Assembly: GCA_013151235.1 (NCBI GenBank)
Contig: JAADIO010000055.1
Span: 39,743 to 103,742, forward strand
Direction: 5' to 3'
From: Deltaproteobacteria bacterium
GTDB taxonomy: Bacteria > CG2-30-53-67
Length of the DNA: 64,000 nucleotides
Shown in pieces: positions 13,120-42,326 of this stretch (position 1 is the first letter of the stretch; the number at the start of each line of letters is the position of its first letter). Made by a program: the position numbers and the translations under genes. Below the pieces are notes generated by a model that did not search any database, had not been told where the DNA came from, and saw only the letters and a program-made list of their open reading frames with translations.

Positions 13120-14408
13120 TGGGCATCTTCCTGGTAGGACTGAGTCACAAAACGGCGCCCGTGGAATTGCGGGAGAAGATCTCCTTTGCCGAAGAGACGA
13201 TCCCGCAAGGACTGGAAAAGCTTCGGGCGGAGTCGATCCCGGAAAACATCATCCTCTCCACTTGCAACCGGGTCGAGATCATCGCTCAATGCGAGGACTG
13301 CGTCAAAGGGATTTCAGCCACGAAAGATTTCCTGTCCGGCGAACACCAGATCCCCCTCGATGAACTGGAGCCTCATCTCTATATCCGGGAAGGCAATGAG
13401 GCAATCCGCCATATCTTCCGTGTCGCTTCCTCGCTTGACTCCATGATGGTCGGGGAGCCCCAGATCCTCGGGCAGTTCAAGAATGCCTTCACGATCGCCT
13501 CGGAGGCCAAGGCGACGGGAATCATCCTGAATCGGCTCATGCACAAGGCCTTCTCCGTGGCAAAAAGGATCAAGACCGAGACGGGGATCGCCCGAAGCGC
13601 CGTTTCCATCAGTTACGCCGCCGTGGAACTGGCCAAGAAGATTTTCGACGATCTGACGGACAAGACCGTCATGCTCATCGGAGCCGGGGAGATGTGCGAA
13701 CTGGCGGCCAAACACCTGATGCAAAACGGCGCGAAAAAAATGCTCGTCACCAACCGGACCTACAGCCGCGCCGTGGAACTGGCACAGGAGTTCAACGGGA
13801 GCGCCATCCGTTTTGAAAATTTCATCGAATCACTGATCCAGACGGACATCATCATCTCCTCCACCGGGGCGCCGCACTATATCCTGCACCACCACGATGT
13901 AAAAGAGGTGATTCACGAACGGAGGAACAAGCCGATCTTCATGATCGATATCGCCGTCCCCCGTGACCTTGATCCGGAAATCAACAAGATCGACAATGTC
14001 TACCTCTACGATATCGACAATCTCCAGGCCGTCGTTGAAACCAACATCGAAGAGCGGAAGAAGGAAGCGGAAAAGGCCGACAGCATCGTCACGCAGGAGG
14101 TCCGGACCTTCGAACAATGGCTCGCCTCCCTGAAGGTCACACCGATGATCGTCCTTCTCCGGGAACGGATGGAGCAGATCCGGCAGGAAGAACTCCGAAA
14201 GACCCTGCCCCGCCTGAACGGAATCTCGGAGAAGGAGAAGAGGTCGATTGAATCGATGTCGATGGCGATCATCAATAAGGTTCTTCACGGCCCGATGAAA
14301 GCCTTGAAGTCGTGTCACCCGGAAGAAAAAGAAACGCTCATGCAGGTGTTGCGGGAGATCTTCCAGTTGGAAGACTCTCCCCGAAAGATCGGGGAAAAAG
14401 ATCGTTAA
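13119..14408 (+). CDS. hemA: Glutamyl-tRNA reductase
   Basis: MGIFLVGLSHKTAPVELREK N-terminus, SSLDSMMVGEPQILGQ and the NAD-binding GAGEM motif. The start is re-set to the internal Met at 13119. Confidence 0.95.
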   Translation: MGIFLVGLSHKTAPVELREKISFAEETIPQGLEKLRAESIPENIILSTCNRVEIIAQCEDCVKGISATKDFLSGEHQIPLDELEPHLYIREGNEAIRHIFRVASSLDSMMVGEPQILGQFKNAFTIASEAKATGIILNRLMHKAFSVAKRIKTETGIARSAVSISYAAVELAKKIFDDLTDKTVMLIGAGEMCELAAKHLMQNGAKKMLVTNRTYSRAVELAQEFNGSAIRFENFIESLIQTDIIISSTGAPHYILHHHDVKEVIHERRNKPIFMIDIAVPRDLDPEINKIDNVYLYDIDNLQAVVETNIEERKKEAEKADSIVTQEVRTFEQWLASLKVTPMIVLLRERMEQIRQEELRKTLPRLNGISEKEKRSIESMSMAIINKVLHGPMKALKSCHPEEKETLMQVLREIFQLEDSPRKIGEKDR

Positions 14409-14440
14409 CCGTGGTATACACTCCATTGTAAGGGAAGAAG

Positions 14441-15373
14441 ATGACAAACTCAAAGGAAGTCCGTATCGGCACACGTGGAAGTCAGCTTGCACTCTGGCAG
14501 GCCAACTGGATCAAATCGACGCTCGAGGCCCGGCATCCCGACCTTGTGGTCTCTTTGGTGAAGATCAAGACCACGGGAGACAAGATCCTCGATGTCCCCC
14601 TGGCCCAGGTCGGCGGCAAAGGACTCTTCGTCAAGGAGATCGAAGAGGCAATGCTTGACGGAAGGATCGACCTGGCCGTCCACAGCATGAAGGATGTCCC
14701 CACCGACCTTCCCGGTCCGCTCCACCTGCCGGTGATCGCCGAACGTGAAGATCCGAGGGACGCCCTCTTGTCGCACGGCAAAGTGTTCGATGACCTGCCG
14801 CAGGGGGCGAAGATCGGTACGAGCAGCCTGCGGCGTCAGGCCCAGCTCCTCCACCGGCGTCCCGATATGGAGATGATCTCCCTCCGGGGGAACCTCGACA
14901 CCCGGATCAGGAAGCTCGACACGGAAGGGCTCGATGCCGTCATTCTCGCCGCGGCGGGAATCCGCAGGATGGGCTGGGCGGAGAAGATCACCCAGATCCT
15001 GCCGACGGAAATCTCTCTGCCCGCCATCGGGCAGGGGGCCGTGGGGATCGAATGCCGCCGGGAGGATCCCCGCATCAATGACCTGATCGCCTTCATCCGT
15101 CATGATGATACCTTCGATGCCGTGGTGGCGGAACGGGCCTTTTTAAAGAAACTTGAAGGGGGTTGCCAGGTCCCGATCGCCGCCTATGCCGAAGTCGACG
15201 GCAAAAATCTGAAACTCCGGGGTCTCGTCGGAAGCGTCGACGGCAAGGAACTGATCGAAGACAAAATCGACGGGCTCCGTACGGACGGCGCCCGTCTCGG
15301 CACCGAATTGGGAGAACGGGTCCTCGCTGCCGGCGCCGGCCGGATCCTCGAAGAGGTTTACAAAAATCAGTAA
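14441..15373 (+). CDS. hemC: Porphobilinogen deaminase (hydroxymethylbilane synthase)
   Basis: VRIGTRGSQLALWQA, GGKGLFVKEIE and SLRGNLDTR motifs. Confidence 0.95.
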   Translation: MTNSKEVRIGTRGSQLALWQANWIKSTLEARHPDLVVSLVKIKTTGDKILDVPLAQVGGKGLFVKEIEEAMLDGRIDLAVHSMKDVPTDLPGPLHLPVIAEREDPRDALLSHGKVFDDLPQGAKIGTSSLRRQAQLLHRRPDMEMISLRGNLDTRIRKLDTEGLDAVILAAAGIRRMGWAEKITQILPTEISLPAIGQGAVGIECRREDPRINDLIAFIRHDDTFDAVVAERAFLKKLEGGCQVPIAAYAEVDGKNLKLRGLVGSVDGKELIEDKIDGLRTDGARLGTELGERVLAAGAGRILEEVYKNQ

Positions 15374-15436
15374 CCCCTTCATTGCAGGCTGTTGTTTTCC
15401 GGTCCCTCTTCGCGACAAGGAGGACACAGGAACATT

Positions 15437-17026
15437 ATGGATTGGACGGACAAAAAATCCCCCCCGGCCCCTCTTTTACAAGGTGGAGAGAAATCATCCA
15501 TCAAAGGAAAAGTCTTTCTCCTCGGCGCCGGTCCCGGCCACCCGAAGTTGATCACCCTCCGGGCGATCGAATGTATCCGGGATGCCGAGGTCATCATCTA
15601 CGACTACCTGGCCAATCAGAAATTCCTTCAGTATGCCCCGAAGGGGTGCGAGATCATCTATGCCGGGAAGACGAGCGTTCACCATACCCTGCATCAGGAT
15701 GAAATCAATCAGCTCCTCATCGACAAGGCCCGTACGGGAAAAACGGTGATCCGGCTCAAGGGGGGAGATCCCCTCCTTTACGGACGCGGCGGGGAAGAGG
15801 CGGAAGGACTCGCCCGGGAGGGGATCCCCTTCGAGATCGTCCCCGGCATCCCGGCGGCTACCGCCATTGCGGCCTATGCCGGGATCCCTCTGACCCACCG
15901 TGACTCAGCGTCTACGGTCGCCTTTATTACAGGGCACGAAGGATCGGGCAAGAGCGGCCCGCCCGTGGACTGGGAAAAGATCAGCACCGGCGTCGGCACG
16001 GTCGTCATCTACATGGGGGTCGGCAACCTGCAGGAAAATACCCGTAAACTCATGGAACACGGACGGGCGCCCGAAACCCCGACGGCCCTCGTCCGCTGGG
16101 GTACGACGCCGGAGCAGGAGATCCTCATCGGGACCCTGGCCGACATCTACGAGAAGGCCCGGACGGCACACTTCAAGGCCCCGGCCATCATGATCGTCGG
16201 CGAAACGGTCCGGCTCCACGACAAACTCCACTGGACCGATCAACTCCCCCTCTTCGGCCGCCGGATCGCCCTCACCCGGGAACGGGAGAACGCCGGACTC
16301 TTTTCCAAGGAACTGGAGCGGCTGGGGGCGGTGATCTACTACCTCCCCGCCATCAGCATCTTTTCCCCGGAAGAGTTCGGGATCGTCGATCAGGCCATTG
16401 AAGAAATCGAACAGTTCGACTGGATCATATTTACGAGTGCCAACGCCGTCCGATATTTTCTTGATCGTCTGATCAAGAAGAATCGGGATGTGCGTGATCT
16501 GAAAGGGATTTCGATCTGCACCGTGGGGACCGCCACGGCCCGGTCTCTAAAAACCCGGGGGATACGGACCGACCTCATCCCCGAGGAGTTCACCGGGGAA
16601 GGCGTCGTTGCCGCCCTGCTGAAGGAGGGAGATCTTCCGGGGAAGCGGGTTCTGATCCCCAGGGCGGAAAAGGCGAGGGAAGTGGTCCCCGATGCCCTCC
16701 GGGAGGCAGGCGCCGAGGTCGTCGTGGCCACGGTCTACCGGAATCTTGCCCCGGAGATTGACGCACAGGCACTCCAGGAGATCCTGATCAACCGCAAGGC
16801 AGACCTGATCGTCTTTACCAGTCCATCGAATATCAGAAATTTTGTCCGGTCCGTGCAGAAAGAAGGACTGCAGAAAACCCTGCCGGGAATCAGGACCGCA
16901 TGCATCGGTCCGGTCACGGCAAAGGCGGCGAAAGAAGCCGGGCTCGATGTTGTCGTTGAACCGGAGAAATCGACACTCGAGTCGGTCTCTGAAGCGATCC
17001 GGAAATATTTCGCTGAAAAACAATGA
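15437..17026 (+). CDS. cobA/hemD: Bifunctional uroporphyrinogen-III C-methyltransferase / uroporphyrinogen-III synthase (CobA-HemD fusion)
   Basis: N-terminal VFLLGAGPGHPKLITLRA SAM-dependent tetrapyrrole methylase domain and C-terminal HemD-like domain. Start chosen at the Met after the AAGGAGG SD. Confidence 0.9.
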   Translation: MDWTDKKSPPAPLLQGGEKSSIKGKVFLLGAGPGHPKLITLRAIECIRDAEVIIYDYLANQKFLQYAPKGCEIIYAGKTSVHHTLHQDEINQLLIDKARTGKTVIRLKGGDPLLYGRGGEEAEGLAREGIPFEIVPGIPAATAIAAYAGIPLTHRDSASTVAFITGHEGSGKSGPPVDWEKISTGVGTVVIYMGVGNLQENTRKLMEHGRAPETPTALVRWGTTPEQEILIGTLADIYEKARTAHFKAPAIMIVGETVRLHDKLHWTDQLPLFGRRIALTRERENAGLFSKELERLGAVIYYLPAISIFSPEEFGIVDQAIEEIEQFDWIIFTSANAVRYFLDRLIKKNRDVRDLKGISICTVGTATARSLKTRGIRTDLIPEEFTGEGVVAALLKEGDLPGKRVLIPRAEKAREVVPDALREAGAEVVVATVYRNLAPEIDAQALQEILINRKADLIVFTSPSNIRNFVRSVQKEGLQKTLPGIRTACIGPVTAKAAKEAGLDVVVEPEKSTLESVSEAIRKYFAEKQ

Positions 17027-17030
17027 TGGT

Positions 17031-17177
17031 CTCGTAAAAAGTCGTTTTTCGGATTCCGTTCATGGTTCGACAGGCTTCCGAGCATGGTGAGCTTGCCGAA
17101 CCACACGAACGGGGAATATCAAAGACTTACACCGTTCGCCCTGAGCGTGTCGAAGGGTCGAACGGACTTTTTACGAG
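17031..17177. mobile_element. MITE/REP-like element, copy A (147 bp, 13-bp terminal inverted repeats CTCGTAAAAAGTC/GACTTTTTACGAG, long internal palindrome)
   Basis: Perfect TIRs are visible in the sequence. It shares an exact 31-nt core (CTTCCGAGCATGGTGAGCTTGCCGAACCACA, 17075-17105) with copy B and begins 4 bp after the cobA/hemD stop. Confidence 0.5.
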
Positions 17178-17221
17178 TCCATCAACAATCGAACCAGAAA
17201 ATTTAAAAGGGAGATGCCATC

Positions 17222-18205
17222 ATGTTTTTCCCCAGCTACCGTCCGCGCCGGGTACGGAAAAATGAACAGATCCGAAGAATGGTCCGGGAGACCCGGCTCT
17301 CCGTGGACAACCTGATCTACCCCCTGTTCGCCATTCATGGCAAGAAGGTCAAAAATGAGATCCCTTCCATGCCGGGAAACTTCCAGCTCTCTGTGGAGAA
17401 CCTCGTCCGGGAAGCCCGGACGGTCTACAAGCTCGGCATCCCGGCCGTCCTCCTCTTCGGGATTCCGAAGAGGAAAGATGCCGTCGGCTCCGGGGCCTAC
17501 GACGAACACGGCATCATCCAAACCGCCGTCCGGTCGATCAAGGACAAGATCCCGGAGCTGATCGTGATCACGGATGTCTGTCTCTGCGAATATACCGATC
17601 ACGGCCATTGCGGGATCGTCGAGAACGGCGAAATCCTGAACGACCCGACGCTGGAACTCCTCGCGAAGGAAGCGGTATCCCACGCCCGGGCCGGGGCCGA
17701 CATCATCGCCCCTTCGGACATGATGGACGGCCGGGTCGGCGCCATCCGGGAGGCTCTCGATGAAGAAGGTTTTGATGACACACCGATCCTCTCCTATGCC
17801 GTCAAATATGCCTCCGGATTCTACGGTCCCTTCCGGGATGCAGCGGAATCGACACCCGGTTTCGGCGACCGCGCCTCTCACCAGATGGACCCGGCCAACA
17901 CCCGTGAGGCCATGCGGGAGGCGGAGCTGGATGTCTCGGAAGGGGCGGACATGCTCATGGTCAAACCAGCGCTTCCCTACCTCGACATCATCTACCGGGT
18001 GAAGGAGGAATTCGATCTGCCTGTGGCCGCCTACAACGTCTCCGGCGAATTCTCCATGATCAAGGCCGCAGCAAAACAGGGGTGGCTCGACGAGAAACGG
18101 GTGATGATGGAATCGTTGATCTCGATCCGGCGGGCCGGCGCCGACATGATCCTCACCTACTGGGCGAAGGATGCCGCAAAACTGCTTCAGAAACAGCAAC
18201 CATAA
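17222..18205 (+). CDS. hemB: Porphobilinogen synthase (delta-aminolevulinate dehydratase)
   Basis: RPRRVRKNE...LIYPLF N-terminus, active-site [10 protein letters not shown] region, and a Cys-rich metal site ([14 protein letters not shown]). Confidence 0.95.
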
Positions 18206-18260
18206 AAAAAGAAGACCGGAATCGCCGTTTCTGATAGAATAAAAGACGGGAGGAGGACAA

Positions 18261-18527
18261 ATGTTCATTCGGCGATTTCATAGTGAAATCATCTTTCATC
18301 TCTTCAGCCTGATCTTTTTCGACCTGATCTATTTCATCGTCCTCATGTTGCTCCTGTTGCAGCATGAGGCGCTGTGGTTAGGCCTCGGGTCTCTTCTCGT
18401 CTTCGGCTACCTGCATCTCCGTTACTTCCGGAGTTTCTGCCGGGAGATCCGCTGGACCTACGTCACACCTCATCTTGTTTTCCCCTGCCTTTTGACGTTG
18501 GTCGCCTTTTTGACCTACGCGCCATGA
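18261..18527 (+). CDS. Small hydrophobic protein (88 aa, 2-3 predicted TM helices), hypothetical
   Basis: A strong SD (GGGAGGAGG) lies 7 bp upstream of the ATG. Two long hydrophobic stretches. It sits between hemB and hemL. Confidence 0.4.
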   Translation: MFIRRFHSEIIFHLFSLIFFDLIYFIVLMLLLLQHEALWLGLGSLLVFGYLHLRYFRSFCREIRWTYVTPHLVFPCLLTLVAFLTYAP

Positions 18528-18587
18528 AACAGGGTTCAAACTGCTTAAACCATTCAAACCGTTTAGAGAACAGACAGCCTCTTTCCA

Positions 18588-18617
18588 TTGACAGAACCTC
18601 CTGAAAATGTTACTAAT
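18588..18617 (+). promoter_or_regulatory. Sigma-70-type promoter candidate for hemL (TTGACA-N17-TACTAAT)
   Basis: Consensus -35 hexamer at 18588-18593 and -10-like TACTAAT at 18611-18617 with a 17-nt spacer, about 40 bp upstream of the hemL ATG. Confidence 0.45.
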
Positions 18618-18655
18618 CTTCTCATTAATTCAGGGATTCAGAAGGAGAATCAGAC

Positions 18656-19936
18656 ATGTCGAACCGTTCCGAAGAACTCTTTGTCCAAGCACAGAAATTC
18701 ATCCCCGGCGGGGTCAACAGCCCGGTGCGGGCCTTCAAGTCGGTGGGAGGCAGTCCCGTTTTCATCGACCGATCCGAAGGAAGCCGGATCTTCGATGTGG
18801 AGGGCCGGGCCTATATCGACTACATCGGTTCCTGGGGACCGATGATCGTGGGACATTCCCATCCACGGGTCGTCGAAGCCCTCAAAAAAGCCATCGACAA
18901 GGGGACGAGTTTCGGCGCTCCGACGGTGTTGGAGACCGAACTGGCGCAGAGGGTGATCCAGGCCGTCCCCTCCGTGGAAATGGTCCGGATGGTCAACTCC
19001 GGCACGGAGGCAACGATGAGCGCCATCCGGGTTGCCCGGGGCTATACCGGACGGGACAAGATCATCAAGTTCGAGGGGTGCTACCACGGCCATGCCGACG
19101 GCCTGCTCGTTAAGGCCGGCTCCGGCGCCGCCACCTTCGGAGTCCCGACCAGTCCCGGCGTCCCCGCTGATTATGCAAGGAACACTCTCACCGCCCCCTT
19201 CAACAATCTTGAGGCCGTGGAGAAGCTCATCGCCGAAGAGGGAGACGATATCGCCTGCATCATCGTTGAGCCGTTGCCGGGAAACATGGGCGTCGTCCCC
19301 CCGAAGGCGGGTTTCCTGGAGGAACTCCGGAAGATCACGGCGGAAAAGGGGATCGTGCTGATCTTCGATGAAGTCATGTCCGGTTTCCGTGTCGCCTACG
19401 GCGGCGCCCAGGAACGCTTCGGGATTACACCCGATATGACGACCCTTGGAAAGGTGATCGGCGGCGGACTTCCCGTCGGCGCCTACGGCGGGAAGAAGGA
19501 GATCATGGAACAGGTCTCTCCTTCCGGCCCGGTCTACCAGGCCGGGACCCTCTCGGGGAATCCTCTCGCCATGACGGCCGGAATCGAGACCCTGAAGATC
19601 CTCTCCGAACCGGGCGTCTACGACCAATTAGAGGAGAAATCGACGAAGCTCTGCAAGGGGATCCGGGAGGCCTTTGCGGAAGCCGGTGTTCCCGCCTTCC
19701 ACACCCAGGTGGGTGCCATGTTCTGTACCTTCTTCAACAACGGGGAAGTGACCGACTACACCTCGGCGGCCCGATCCGACACGGAACGGTTCGGGAAGTA
19801 CTTCCATAACATGCTGGAACAGGGGATCAACCTGGCGCCGTCCCAGTTCGAAGCGGCCTTCATGTCTCTGGCCCACTCCGATGAGGATATTGCAAAGACA
19901 ATCGACGCCTGCCGGAAGAGCTTACGGAAACTTTGA
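18656..19936 (+). CDS. hemL: Glutamate-1-semialdehyde 2,1-aminomutase
   Basis: [14 protein letters not shown] motif, a PLP-lysine region and aminotransferase class III architecture. Confidence 0.95.
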
Positions 19937-19940
19937 TGAA

Positions 19941-20110
19941 GTCGTAAAAAGTCACGAAGCCCTTCGACAGGCTCAGGACGAACGGTATAAGTGGTTGATA
20001 TTCCGTTCGTGTGGTTCGGCGAGCTTCCGAGCATGGTGAGCTTGCCGAACCACATGCTCGGTAGCTTGTCGAACCATAAACGGAATCCGGAAAATGACTT
20101 TTTACGAGAC
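19941..20110. mobile_element. MITE/REP-like element, copy B (~170 bp, TIRs GTCGTAAAAAGTCA/TGACTTTTTACGAG)
   Basis: Same TIR and the identical 31-nt core (20024-20054) as copy A. An internal 9-bp stem CCGAGCATG/CATGCTCGG. Begins 4 bp after the hemL stop. Confidence 0.5.
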
Positions 20111-20239
20111 CATCAACTTTAAGCTGCAACACAAGACGATTCCCTTTCCTTTCACTGCCCTTTGCCCTCTGTCGGGGGGACGGTTTTTCTTCAACACTGT
20201 GCGCTGCATACTGAAAATACGGCCCTCGTAACGAACGGT

Positions 20240-23200
20240 ATGAACGAAGAGAAAAAACCGGATCAATCCACCTTCACGCCGGACCAGAAGCGGGCGATTC
20301 ACACCTTGGGACGGAATCTCTGTGTCTCCGCCGGAGCCGGGTCCGGAAAGACGACGGTCCTCGTAGAACGATTCCTCTATCTCCTCGAAGAAGGACAGTT
20401 CAAGATCAACGAAATTGCGGCGATCACCTTCACGGAAAAGGCCGCCGGCCAGATGAAGGAGAAGATCCGGAAGAAGCTACTGGATCGGATGGAGAGAGCA
20501 GCAACTCCGGAGGAACGCCGCCGCATGGAAACCCGTTACCGTGAGGCCGGCTCCGCATGGATTCACACAATTCACGGACTTTGCACCCGCATCCTAAAGG
20601 AACAGGCGGTCGCTGCCGGGATCGACCCCGGCTATCTGACCCTCGACGAAACGGAAACCCTCCTTCTTCTCCACAAGACACTGAAATCCTTTATCGTAAA
20701 CCGCCTGAATCAGGGGAAAGCGTCGATGGTGCGGCTTCTCTCCGCATACGGACTGGAGAAGACCCGGAAAATACTTACGGCCCTGGTTCAAAGGCGCGTC
20801 GATGCCGCCCCCTGGATCAATATCTATCTTAAACAATCCGATGAGGAGATCCTGCGCCCACTCTTCGAGACACGCAAAGATTTGGAGACGGAATTGAAAT
20901 CGCACATCGCCCGTCTCCGGGATTACGGGGCGGACGACCCGGCAGACCGGATGGAGCAAAACCGCGTGACGGCCCTTGCCCTCCCGGATACCGGTCCGCT
21001 CAACCCGGAAACACTGACCACCCTTCTGAAGATAGATCTTCGGGTAGGAAGCAAGAAGAAGTGGCTTTCCGGGGATCTTCCGGCCGTTAAAGCCCTGCTG
21101 AAAGAGATCAAAGACCGTGCGAAAGATCTTCTTCCCTTATACAGCGAGGAAGCAATACGGCGGGAGCCGGAACACTTCTCCGTGCCCTCTGCCGGGAACT
21201 GGATCCCTTGTTAGAGGAGTACTTGCGGGACAAGGCACAACTGGGGGTTCTCGACTTCGAGGATCTTCAGATCAAGACCCGGAACCTCCTCCGGGATCAT
21301 TCCGGAATCAGGGAACACTATCGGAAGAATTTCGCCACCCTCCTCGTAGATGAACATCAGGATACCGACCCCCTGCAGATGGAGATCATCGAACTCCTTG
21401 CCGGCGGGGAGGAAGGACGGATCTTCGTGGTCGGCGATGACAAGCAGTCAATTTATGGTTTCCGCGGCGCCGACGTGACCGTCTTCCGGGACTACCGGGC
21501 AAAGACGGCAAAGAACGGCGGGGGATGCCTGATCTCCCTGAAGACCAATTTCCGAAGCCAGGAAGAGATCCTTCGTTTCATCAATCATCTTTTTGGGAGG
21601 ATCTTCCCTTCCGGCAATGAAACGATCCCCTTTGAAGGTCTCGATCCCTTCCGGAAGAGTCTGCCCAATGAACACTTCATCGAATCCTGTCTGATTGCCG
21701 CAGCCAAGGAGGAGAAAAAAACCGCCGAGGAGATCCGTCAGGAAGAAGCCGCAGCCCTGGCGCTGAGAATCCGGAGCATGGTCGACAAGGGAGAGAAACG
21801 GATCCTCTCCGACGATGGAGAACCACGGGCTGTACAGTTCGGCGATATCGCCCTCCTCTTCCGGGCCATGACCGATGTCAGGATCTATGAAGATGCACTA
21901 CTTCAATACGGCATTCCCTTCACCGTGGTCAGCGGCGGCGGCTTTTTCAAAAAACAGGAGGTCCTCGACATCCTCAACTTTCTTCGCCTCCTCCTGAATC
22001 CGGAAAATGATGAGGCGCTGGCGGCTCTGCTACGAAGTCCTGCGGCCGGTGTCCGGGATGATACCCTCTACTTCATGACCCGGGGGCGGACCCTTTCATC
22101 GGGACTGACCGTTGCGGAAGCCCTTGACGGTATCGACGATTCGGAAAAGGCGATCCTGATCCGGACCCGGAAACTTCTCGAAGATTTTCGGCACATCAAA
22201 AACCGGGTTGAGATTCCCGAGCTGATCGGCGGTTTTCTTGATCGGACAGGCTACGGGGCCGCTCTGTTGGCCGACCCCGTTTATGGTCGACAACGCCATG
22301 CCAACCTGCAAAAACTAATGGACATGGGACGAGATTTTTCCGCCGGTCCTTTCTTCGGCCCGGCCGATTTCATCGATTACATCGACGAACTGATGGATCG
22401 AGAGACCCGGGAGGGGGAATCCCCTGTGGAGGAGGAAGGGGAAGATACCGTCAAGATTCTTTCGATCCATAAAGCCAAAGGGCTCGAATTCCCCGTCGTT
22501 ATTCTTCCCGATCTCGGCAGAAATGCCGGGGGACGCGGATCAGGTTTCGTTGCAGTTGACAGGCACCTCGGGATCGGGATCAAGATCCCCGATGGGACCG
22601 GCGGATGGTGCAGCGGGTTTCTCCGGAAACGGATCGAGGAGACCCGGGAAAAGGAAGAAATCGAAGAGGGGAAAAGACTCTTCTATGTCGCCGCCACAAG
22701 AGCGCGTGATTTCCTTGTTCTCTCCGGGCAGGTCAAGAGGTCGAAAAACCCGGGCCGGGAAGCCGCCCTTCCGATGGAGTGGCTCTGTGAGGCTCTCGGG
22801 ATCACCGAGGAAAACTGCCGGGAGGAGATCTCTTACGGAGGCCGGCAAATCCGGCCCATCACCCCACCCCGGAAACCGGCCTCGGAAGCAGCGGAAACAG
22901 TCCGCTGGATCGACCGCTTTCCGGAACTGCTCTCCGGAGAGATTCCTGATCTCTCCGGACAGATTGTCGATGAGGAGTTGGCGAAACAGGTCTTCAAGAA
23001 ACCCCGGTGCCGTCCCTCCCGCCGATTCACCGTCTCCCAACTGCTGCTGATCCGGAAGTGCCCCCGAATGTACGAACTGGCGACCCGTTTCGGAATCTCG
23101 GAACCTGAAGTAAAAATTCCGCCCCATGGGACCGGCGGAGAAGGAGGGCGGGAACGGGGCAGCCTGGTTCATCGCATTCTGCAACAATGGGACCTCCGTC

Positions 23201-39966: not shown

Positions 39967-40043
<77 letters not shown>

Positions 40044-42248: not shown

Positions 42249-42326
<78 letters not shown>

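Follow-up and report, generated by a model that had tools for sequence, protein, structure and literature searches.

A probable MITE with 19-bp ends and a 6-bp target-site duplication at two gene ends of a deltaproteobacterial haem-synthesis locus

Results

Two copies of one element lie among the haem-synthesis genes

The window, by which we mean the whole 64-kb stretch of DNA analysed here, carries hemA, hemC and cobA/hemD, followed by a repeat element (copy A), hemB, a small ORF, hemL, a second copy of the element (copy B) and a gene encoding a UvrD-like helicase. Copy A spans 17025-17183 and is 159 bp long, copy B spans 19935-20114 and is 180 bp long. The first-pass annotation had described copy A as a 147-bp element with perfect 13-nt terminal arms, placed 4 bp after the cobA/hemD stop codon. 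Both arms are present (CTCGTAAAAAGTC at 17031-17043 and GACTTTTTACGAG at 17165-17177), as are the nested internal dyads described with them (17063-17076/17090-17103 and 17056-17064/17104-17112). However, the inverted repeat extends 6 nt further outward on each side, and the element is larger and starts inside the stop codon, TGA 17024-17026, rather than behind it. The features of the two copies are as follows.

17019-17024, no strand: left target-site duplication of copy A, AACAAT, read from the sequence; the 6-mer is repeated at 17184-17189
17025-17043, + strand: left terminal inverted repeat of copy A, GATGGTCTCGTAAAAAGTC, 19 nt, from inverted-repeat and end-pattern scans
17044-17164, + strand: interior of copy A, two hairpins with a spacer between them
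17055-17113, + strand: long hairpin of copy A, -31.7 kcal/mol
17132-17165, + strand: second hairpin of copy A, -17.9 kcal/mol, 11-nt loop, abutting the right repeat
17165-17183, - strand: right terminal inverted repeat of copy A (GACTTTTTACGAGTCCATC on the + strand), complement of the left repeat
17184-17189, no strand: right target-site duplication of copy A, AACAAT, read from the sequence
17190-17206, + strand: relic of the original cobA/hemD 3' end, seen after in-silico deletion of the element
16735-17106, - strand: spurious antisense ORF, 123 aa, GTG start, (M)WFGKLTMLGS, starting in the central hairpin
19929-19934, no strand: left target-site duplication of copy B, AACTTT, whose last T begins the hemL TGA (19934-19936)
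19935-19953, + strand: left terminal inverted repeat of copy B, GATGAAGTCGTAAAAAGTC, from the end-pattern scan
19954-20095, - strand: interior of copy B, inverted relative to copy A, with a 24-nt duplication in one arm of the central hairpin
20096-20114, - strand: right terminal inverted repeat of copy B (GACTTTTTACGAGACCATC on the + strand), from the end-pattern scan
20115-20120, no strand: right target-site duplication of copy B, AACTTT, which, read on into the following AA, gives back the earlier TAA stop, its codon position unchanged
20158-20190, + strand: terminator-like hairpin with a T-run, outside the element and 3' of copy B, from a consensus scan only

The second copy had been placed 2.9 kb from the first, which is where we find it; the exact core that the two share in forward orientation is 32 nt long (17074-17105 = 20023-20054) and not 31 nt as reported. 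A forward alignment of the two copies matches in the palindromic centre alone. Aligned with the reverse complement of copy A, copy B shows 84% identity over the full length with a single 24-nt indel. Copies A and B are therefore one element in opposite orientations, and the forward core is shared because the central hairpin is palindromic. Folded as RNA, copy A gives -76.7 kcal/mol (z -7.6) and copy B -84.5 kcal/mol (z -8.5).

The 12-nt core of the ends is perfect in all four ends within the window. A scan with the 19-nt end pattern, allowing at most 3 mismatches, found 4 occurrences in the window against 0.43 expected, a number reached by none of 100 shuffles, so the features of the element exceed chance. 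Only two copies are present within the 64 kb. Since the end cores and the duplications are perfect, copy A is a recent insertion.

The antisense ORF at 16735-17106, which the first-pass annotation had called spurious, has no Pfam match, and we share its judgement. The left junctions of the two copies (17024-17038 and 19934-19948) read TGATG, a stop overlapping an ATG, and at copy A this ATG opens a 3-codon mini-ORF (ATG GTC TCG TAA) within the end repeat; this is probably incidental. Elsewhere in the window, two tRNA genes found with Rfam on the - strand (39970-40043 and 42253-42326), 2.3 kb apart, share a 54-nt stretch of 83% identity that reaches past the end of one tRNA.

An uninterrupted relative preserves the site of copy A

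The TGA stop codons of cobA/hemD (17024-17026) and hemL (19934-19936) are chimeric, each consisting of the last T of the duplication and the GA with which the repeat begins. Deleting 17025-17189, that is copy A and one duplication, restores the reading frame ...GAA AAA CAA TCG AAC CAG AAA ATT TAA (...EKQ-SNQKI-TAA), and the restored TAA is followed by a 15-nt spacer with a GGGAG ribosome-binding site and then by the hemB ATG at 17222.

Among homologues of CobA/HemD that lie on a long contig, the closest is P0004 (87% protein identity), encoded on JGI contig Ga0117756_1000002. In this relative the genes are likewise arranged hemA-hemC-hemD-hemB, the hemB ATG follows the hemD stop after 15 nt, and no end-like sequence was found in its 21.5 kb. 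We compared the filled with the empty site by pairwise alignment with affine gaps. The window minus 17025-17189 aligns with the relative without a gap across the hemD-hemB junction, and the restored CobA/HemD tail, YFAEKQSNQKI, is as long as YFGAIRSKPHI, its counterpart in the relative. Moreover, the 14 nearest CobA/HemD homologues all have tails longer than the truncated ...YFAEKQ of the window. Because the deletion restores a junction colinear with the uninterrupted relative, copy A was inserted five codons ahead of the original cobA/hemD stop. The insertion shortened CobA/HemD by 5 residues and widened the distance from its stop to the downstream hemB from 15 nt to 195 nt; the ancestral 15-nt junction was probably translationally coupled.

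For copy B, reconstruction places a TAA at the same codon, and HemL of the relative ends at the same position, a comparison limited to the hemL stop position since the downstream gene order differs in the relative. Copy B sits exactly on the hemL stop, which it changed from TAA to TGA.

In the relative, hemB is followed by an ORF of 88 aa (L125, 12865-13131) with no Pfam match on record, and an ORF of the same length lies at the same place in the window (18261-18527, + strand). This may be a real small gene.

The ends and a 6-bp duplication define a dispersed family

The first-pass annotation had asked after copies beyond these two loci, and they are abundant. We scanned a genome collection with one genome per GTDB species for two 12-nt end cores lying 115-145 nt apart. 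The scan yielded at least 120 stretches, often on several contigs of one MAG. Carriers among the matches listed are MAGs labelled Desulfobacterales, Desulfobacteraceae, Syntrophaceae (Syntrophales), Syntrophorhabdus, Thermodesulfovibrionales and Nitrospirota. The window's own genome is not among the matches listed; the copies counted there are the 2 in 64 kb.

From 123 elements we derived the 19-bp end consensus GAYGRNNTCGTAAAAAGTC. On both flanks these elements read AANNTT and then GAYGRNN-TCGTAAAAAGTC. Target-site duplications were also sought, and in the window they are 6 bp long, AACAAT for copy A and AACTTT for copy B. Across the family, the 6-mers directly outside GAYGR are exact direct repeats (6/6) in 66 of the 123 elements, compared with 2.6 on average and at most 8 in shuffled pairings, and inverted 6/6 matches between the flanks occur in only 4 of the 123. 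The 6-mers that are identical on both sides include some that depart from AANNTT, such as AATACT, ATAATG, AACAAA and TTTCTT. As these departures match on both sides, the length of the duplication is fixed at 6 bp. A duplication of 2 or 4 bp combined with a longer repeat is ruled out, since non-consensus bases at positions 1, 5 and 6 co-occur on the two sides.

The interiors of 125 elements fall into 23 unrelated clusters, the largest with 57, 32 and 5 members, and the two copies in the window form a cluster of their own. The ends are thus the sole part conserved across the family.

Several arrangements were seen in individual loci. In members of the 57-member cluster, L032 and L088 among them, a second end-like sequence, GACGGCAAAGTAAAAAGCTC, is found ~8 nt inward of one outer end; it hints at a nested insertion or at what is left of an end, and at a related variant of the end sequence. 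Four or more elements stand head to tail in L108 (4468-5190). In L055 (2600-7100), copies occupy one intergenic gap after another along a co-oriented run of thiolase-like and neighbouring genes.

Relatives of the window's subfamily share ends and differ in their interior modules

A protein search with the translated element retrieved four spurious ORFs of the same kind, P0121-P0124 (MWFGKLTMLGS...TFYETI), three of which could be traced to contigs, all from JGI metagenome 3300005096. Two loci, L250 and L252, hold clear relatives of the window's element with the same ends. They contain three complete copies with the duplications ATTCTT, AATTTT and AGGCAT. Within the 9.8 kb of L252 (1-9833) we counted four copies, complete or partial, and one of these separates ruvA from ruvB. 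Copies of this subfamily differ in how many internal hairpin modules they have, with module expansions in L252. In L251 (10100-10300), modules of the subfamily adjoin a MazE/PemK pair and are accompanied by no recognisable ends, and they may be a decayed copy or free-standing modules. In a metagenome scan with the interior 18-mer CCGTTCGTGTGGTTCGGC, every match inspected was coding (PFVWFG) and came from high-GC organisms, and none was an element.

Two interior modules, GTTCGCCCTGAGCNNGTCGAAGGG and GCTTCGACAGGCTCACCATG, located in the window at 17132-17165 and 19957-19983, were also found on plasmids and chromids of other bacteria, namely Sphingobium (as many as 15 places in one record), Comamonas, Novosphingobium and Moraxella osloensis. 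Of these places we examined two, one in Sphingobium and one in Moraxella (L253 400-480 and L254 400-465), and both are intergenic and carry no MITE ends. Likewise, Sphingobium, Comamonas and Moraxella replicons contain numerous copies of the modules GTTCGCCCTGAGC..GTCGAAGGG / GCTTCGACAGGCTCACCATG that lack the ends described here. A literature search for the interior module sequences found nothing.

The element very probably moved by transposition as a MITE

Taken together, the element is small (159 bp and 180 bp) and non-coding, its sole ORF being the spurious antisense frame; it has 19-bp terminal inverted repeats matching GAYGRNNTCGTAAAAAGTC and generates duplications of fixed length, 6 bp; copies are dispersed over unrelated sites at no fewer than 120 loci in many MAGs, in addition to those in L250-L252; and for copy A the orthologous site in Ga0117756_1000002 is empty, lacking precisely the element and one duplication. 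We conclude that it is very probably a bona fide prokaryotic MITE that was moved by transposition, and that its position at gene ends does not reflect targeting of terminators. The first-pass annotation had spoken of a MITE/REP-like element; the terminal repeats, the duplication, the further copies and the empty site uphold the first half of that name and the second half finds no support, because REPs have neither target duplications nor long terminal repeats.

We searched all fetched loci (1.69 Mb) for an autonomous element with these ends, by inspecting solo ends and by pairing relaxed ends 600-3500 bp apart that had a matching 6-mer, and found none; the search yielded only neighbouring MITEs and ordinary metabolic genes. 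A scan of viral contigs gave three matches: one partial MITE, and two end-like sequences standing alone, each lacking a partner.

The following sequence of events would account for the data. A transposase would recognise the 19-bp ends GAYGRNNTCGTAAAAAGTC and make a 6-bp staggered cut at AT-rich, AANNTT-like sites, and repair of this cut would leave the 6-bp duplication. Mobilisation would presumably occur in trans and by a DDE mechanism. As the target ends in T and the element starts with GA, every insertion would create an inward TGA at both ends, with a TAA in a second frame 11 nt further in. The hairpin-rich interior would be cargo, freely variable between subfamilies, and whatever it does to RNA, for example pausing, incomplete termination or protection of 3' ends, would be a by-product of an element that is itself presumably neutral.

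Insertions at gene ends do not point to terminator targeting

We surveyed how reading frames meet the element. On 225 element sides we counted open frames of 100 codons or more that close at the element: 16 end at the T|GA junction (~7% of the sides), 10 at the TAA inside TCGTAAAA and 6 at a TAA just before the duplication. Both copies in the window supply the stop codon of the gene they follow, compared with the ~7% of surveyed sides that do so through T|GA; with n = 2 this is suggestive of an excess over chance. Insertions into the last few codons of a gene can be survived because the ends close two of the three inward frames.

The first-pass annotation had offered two explanations for the position of the element at a gene 3' end, a target preference for intergenic terminator regions and a use as terminator or mRNA-stabilising hairpin. 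The preference finds no support in the family. Sixty-four elements with clear neighbours lie between 42 tandem, 12 convergent and 10 divergent gene pairs and adjoin 66 gene ends against 62 gene starts, and in the two large interior clusters elements are oriented at random with respect to transcription (7:7 and 7:8). Since the surveyed elements show no 3'-end bias and no orientation bias, terminator targeting is unsupported. The window, at 56% G+C, contains 206 AANNTT sites; only 39 lie at least partly outside predicted coding sequence, and 9 are no more than 20 nt from the 3' end of a gene. Target availability together with purifying selection would, we infer, suffice to explain the position at gene ends.

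The alternative with the best standing is that the element is of mobile origin and was then adopted by the host as a terminator or as a stabilising 3' hairpin, and that this adoption explains its position; we regard it as unlikely. Its appeal lies in the very stable folds of both whole elements, in the -17.9 kcal/mol hairpin of copy A, which is followed by AC and then UUUUU at the downstream end (ACUUUUUAC), and in the A-run and T-run of the two ends, which resemble the flanks of bidirectional terminators. Reviews of MITEs also include terminator-like elements, for example SPRITE (PMC10969869, PMC3184786). However, copy A lies inside the hemA-hemC-hemD-hemB operon of an essential pathway, in a spacer that ancestrally measured 15 nt, so a terminator that worked efficiently there would sever hemB from the operon's transcript. 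A consensus terminator scan gave no + strand call at copy A. Copy B has a separate terminator-like hairpin downstream (20158-20190), although this folds weakly (-11.5 kcal/mol, z -0.7, no better than shuffled sequence), and its own hairpin and T-run face the other strand. In addition, a sister copy splits ruvA and ruvB, the L055 copies fill successive gaps between co-oriented genes, and family members flank gene ends and gene starts equally with random orientation. The element thus appears to be tolerated rather than used, an adopted function of any kind being improbable. An effect of the hairpins on RNA is possible, as the whole of copy A would make a very stable fold in the hemD-hemB transcript. 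Copy A and the ruvA-ruvB copy have the same orientation, each with hairpin and U-run at the downstream end, and a directional RNA effect may possibly exist in the window's subfamily.

Could the locus instead encode a structured non-coding RNA, the terminal pairing being part of its fold? Both copies fold strongly, and some MITEs are known to yield small RNAs (PMC10969869). However, family interiors are unrelated and only the ends are kept, and the two copies in the window face opposite ways relative to the operon. A search of Rfam gave nothing at gathering score at the element, only far sub-threshold microRNA/sRNA matches with E up to 10, and a consensus scan of 14000-22000 found no promoter-like site on the + strand. 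We consider an RNA gene very improbable.

That the element is a REP/REPIN-type palindrome spread by a RAYT (an IS200/IS605-like Y1 transposase) is extremely improbable. It shares with these an intergenic location, the palindromic structure, the multiple copies and the GC-rich hairpin set. However, REPs and REPINs lack a target-site duplication and long terminal inverted repeats, and here 66 of the 123 elements carry an exact 6-bp duplication, conservation is confined to the 19-bp ends, and an interior with several hairpins makes up most of a 159-180 bp element in place of a palindrome of 20-40 nt.

The idea of an integron attC site following a gene cassette, to which the imperfect palindrome, the suitable length and the start right at a stop codon would lend themselves, has next to no probability: the neighbours are core haem-synthesis genes in conserved order, the relative differs by just the element and one 6-mer, the ends GATGG.../...CCATC as we read them do not fit the R''/R' cores RYYYAAC/GTTRRRY, flanking direct repeats are present, and elements are also found upstream of genes and between divergent genes.

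Discussion

The reading that we prefer, a MITE moved by transposition, invites comparison with small repeats described in other organisms. The Correia element (NEMIS) of Neisseria is similar: it too is a MITE with long terminal repeats, 100-160 bp in length, whose numerous copies lie near genes, are transcribed together with their neighbours and fold into hairpins as RNA. Correia elements have a TA duplication, 26-bp ends of different sequence and an IHF site. In contrast, the element described here has a 6-bp duplication at AANNTT, and we saw no IHF-type site in it. The plant Tourist and Stowaway superfamilies resemble the present family in being defined by shared ends and duplication length, with unrelated interiors; they are eukaryotic, belong to other transposase families and make 2-3-bp duplications. 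REP/REPIN sequences with their RAYTs are likewise intergenic GC-rich palindromes that generate spurious ORFs, but have no terminal repeats or target duplication, are shorter and are mobilised by another chemistry.

SPRITE, BOX and RUP of Streptococcus pneumoniae are, like the element here, small modular hairpin repeats, and the variable number of internal modules in BOX recalls the expansions in L252. SPRITE is terminator-like and favours convergent genes' 3' ends, according to PMC3184786. The present family differs in having neither a 3'-end nor a convergent bias, and in that its conserved part is the ends and not the modules.

A close counterpart is Chunjie of Geobacter uraniireducens Rf4 (Chen et al. 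2008), a deltaproteobacterial MITE for which PMC3184786 gives 21-bp repeats and 9-bp direct repeats. By the accounts in PMC3184786 and PMC10969869, both elements are ~180-235 bp long with ~20-bp terminal inverted repeats, direct repeats and AT-rich targets, and both have very stable predicted RNA folds, overlaps with gene ends and one operon-internal copy. The 19-bp repeats and 6-bp direct repeats found here set the two families apart. Because the duplication length and the repeats differ, a transposase different from that of Chunjie would be involved.

Duplications of 6 bp (5-7 bp) are known from few IS groups, for example ISDol1 and IS1634. A literature search for ISDol1 returned only unrelated mentions. 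Within the literature searched we found no published description of the end sequence, of the spurious peptides or of MITEs in sulfate reducers or Deltaproteobacteria, and within those limits the superfamily appears undescribed. The element itself is of an ordinary kind, and its family is widespread in bacteria of the sulfate-reducer type.

The interior modules recur in distant phyla. A tentative reading, less likely than not, is that the ends make up a superfamily spanning orders and phyla, with a 6-bp AANNTT duplication and inward stops, moved by a transposase, and that its interiors are put together from short hairpin modules which spread among bacteria on their own. If this is true, the modules would form a distinct pan-bacterial layer of DNA, mobile or selected, with the MITEs as mere carriers of it.

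For the host genomes, the insertions alter the ends of genes, as with the truncated CobA/HemD and the exchanged HemL stop, and they split operons. They also seed the protein sets of MAGs and metagenomes with spurious ORFs of the MWFGKLTMLGS, TFYETI and DFLRDHQ type. With a model of 19-bp ends and a 6-bp duplication, the elements could be masked during annotation and the true 3' ends of genes recovered, and individual copies can serve as presence/absence markers for strain tracking. The conservation of the ends across MAGs of Desulfobacterales, Syntrophales and Nitrospirota, around an interior that varies, points to a widespread transposase not yet matched to them.
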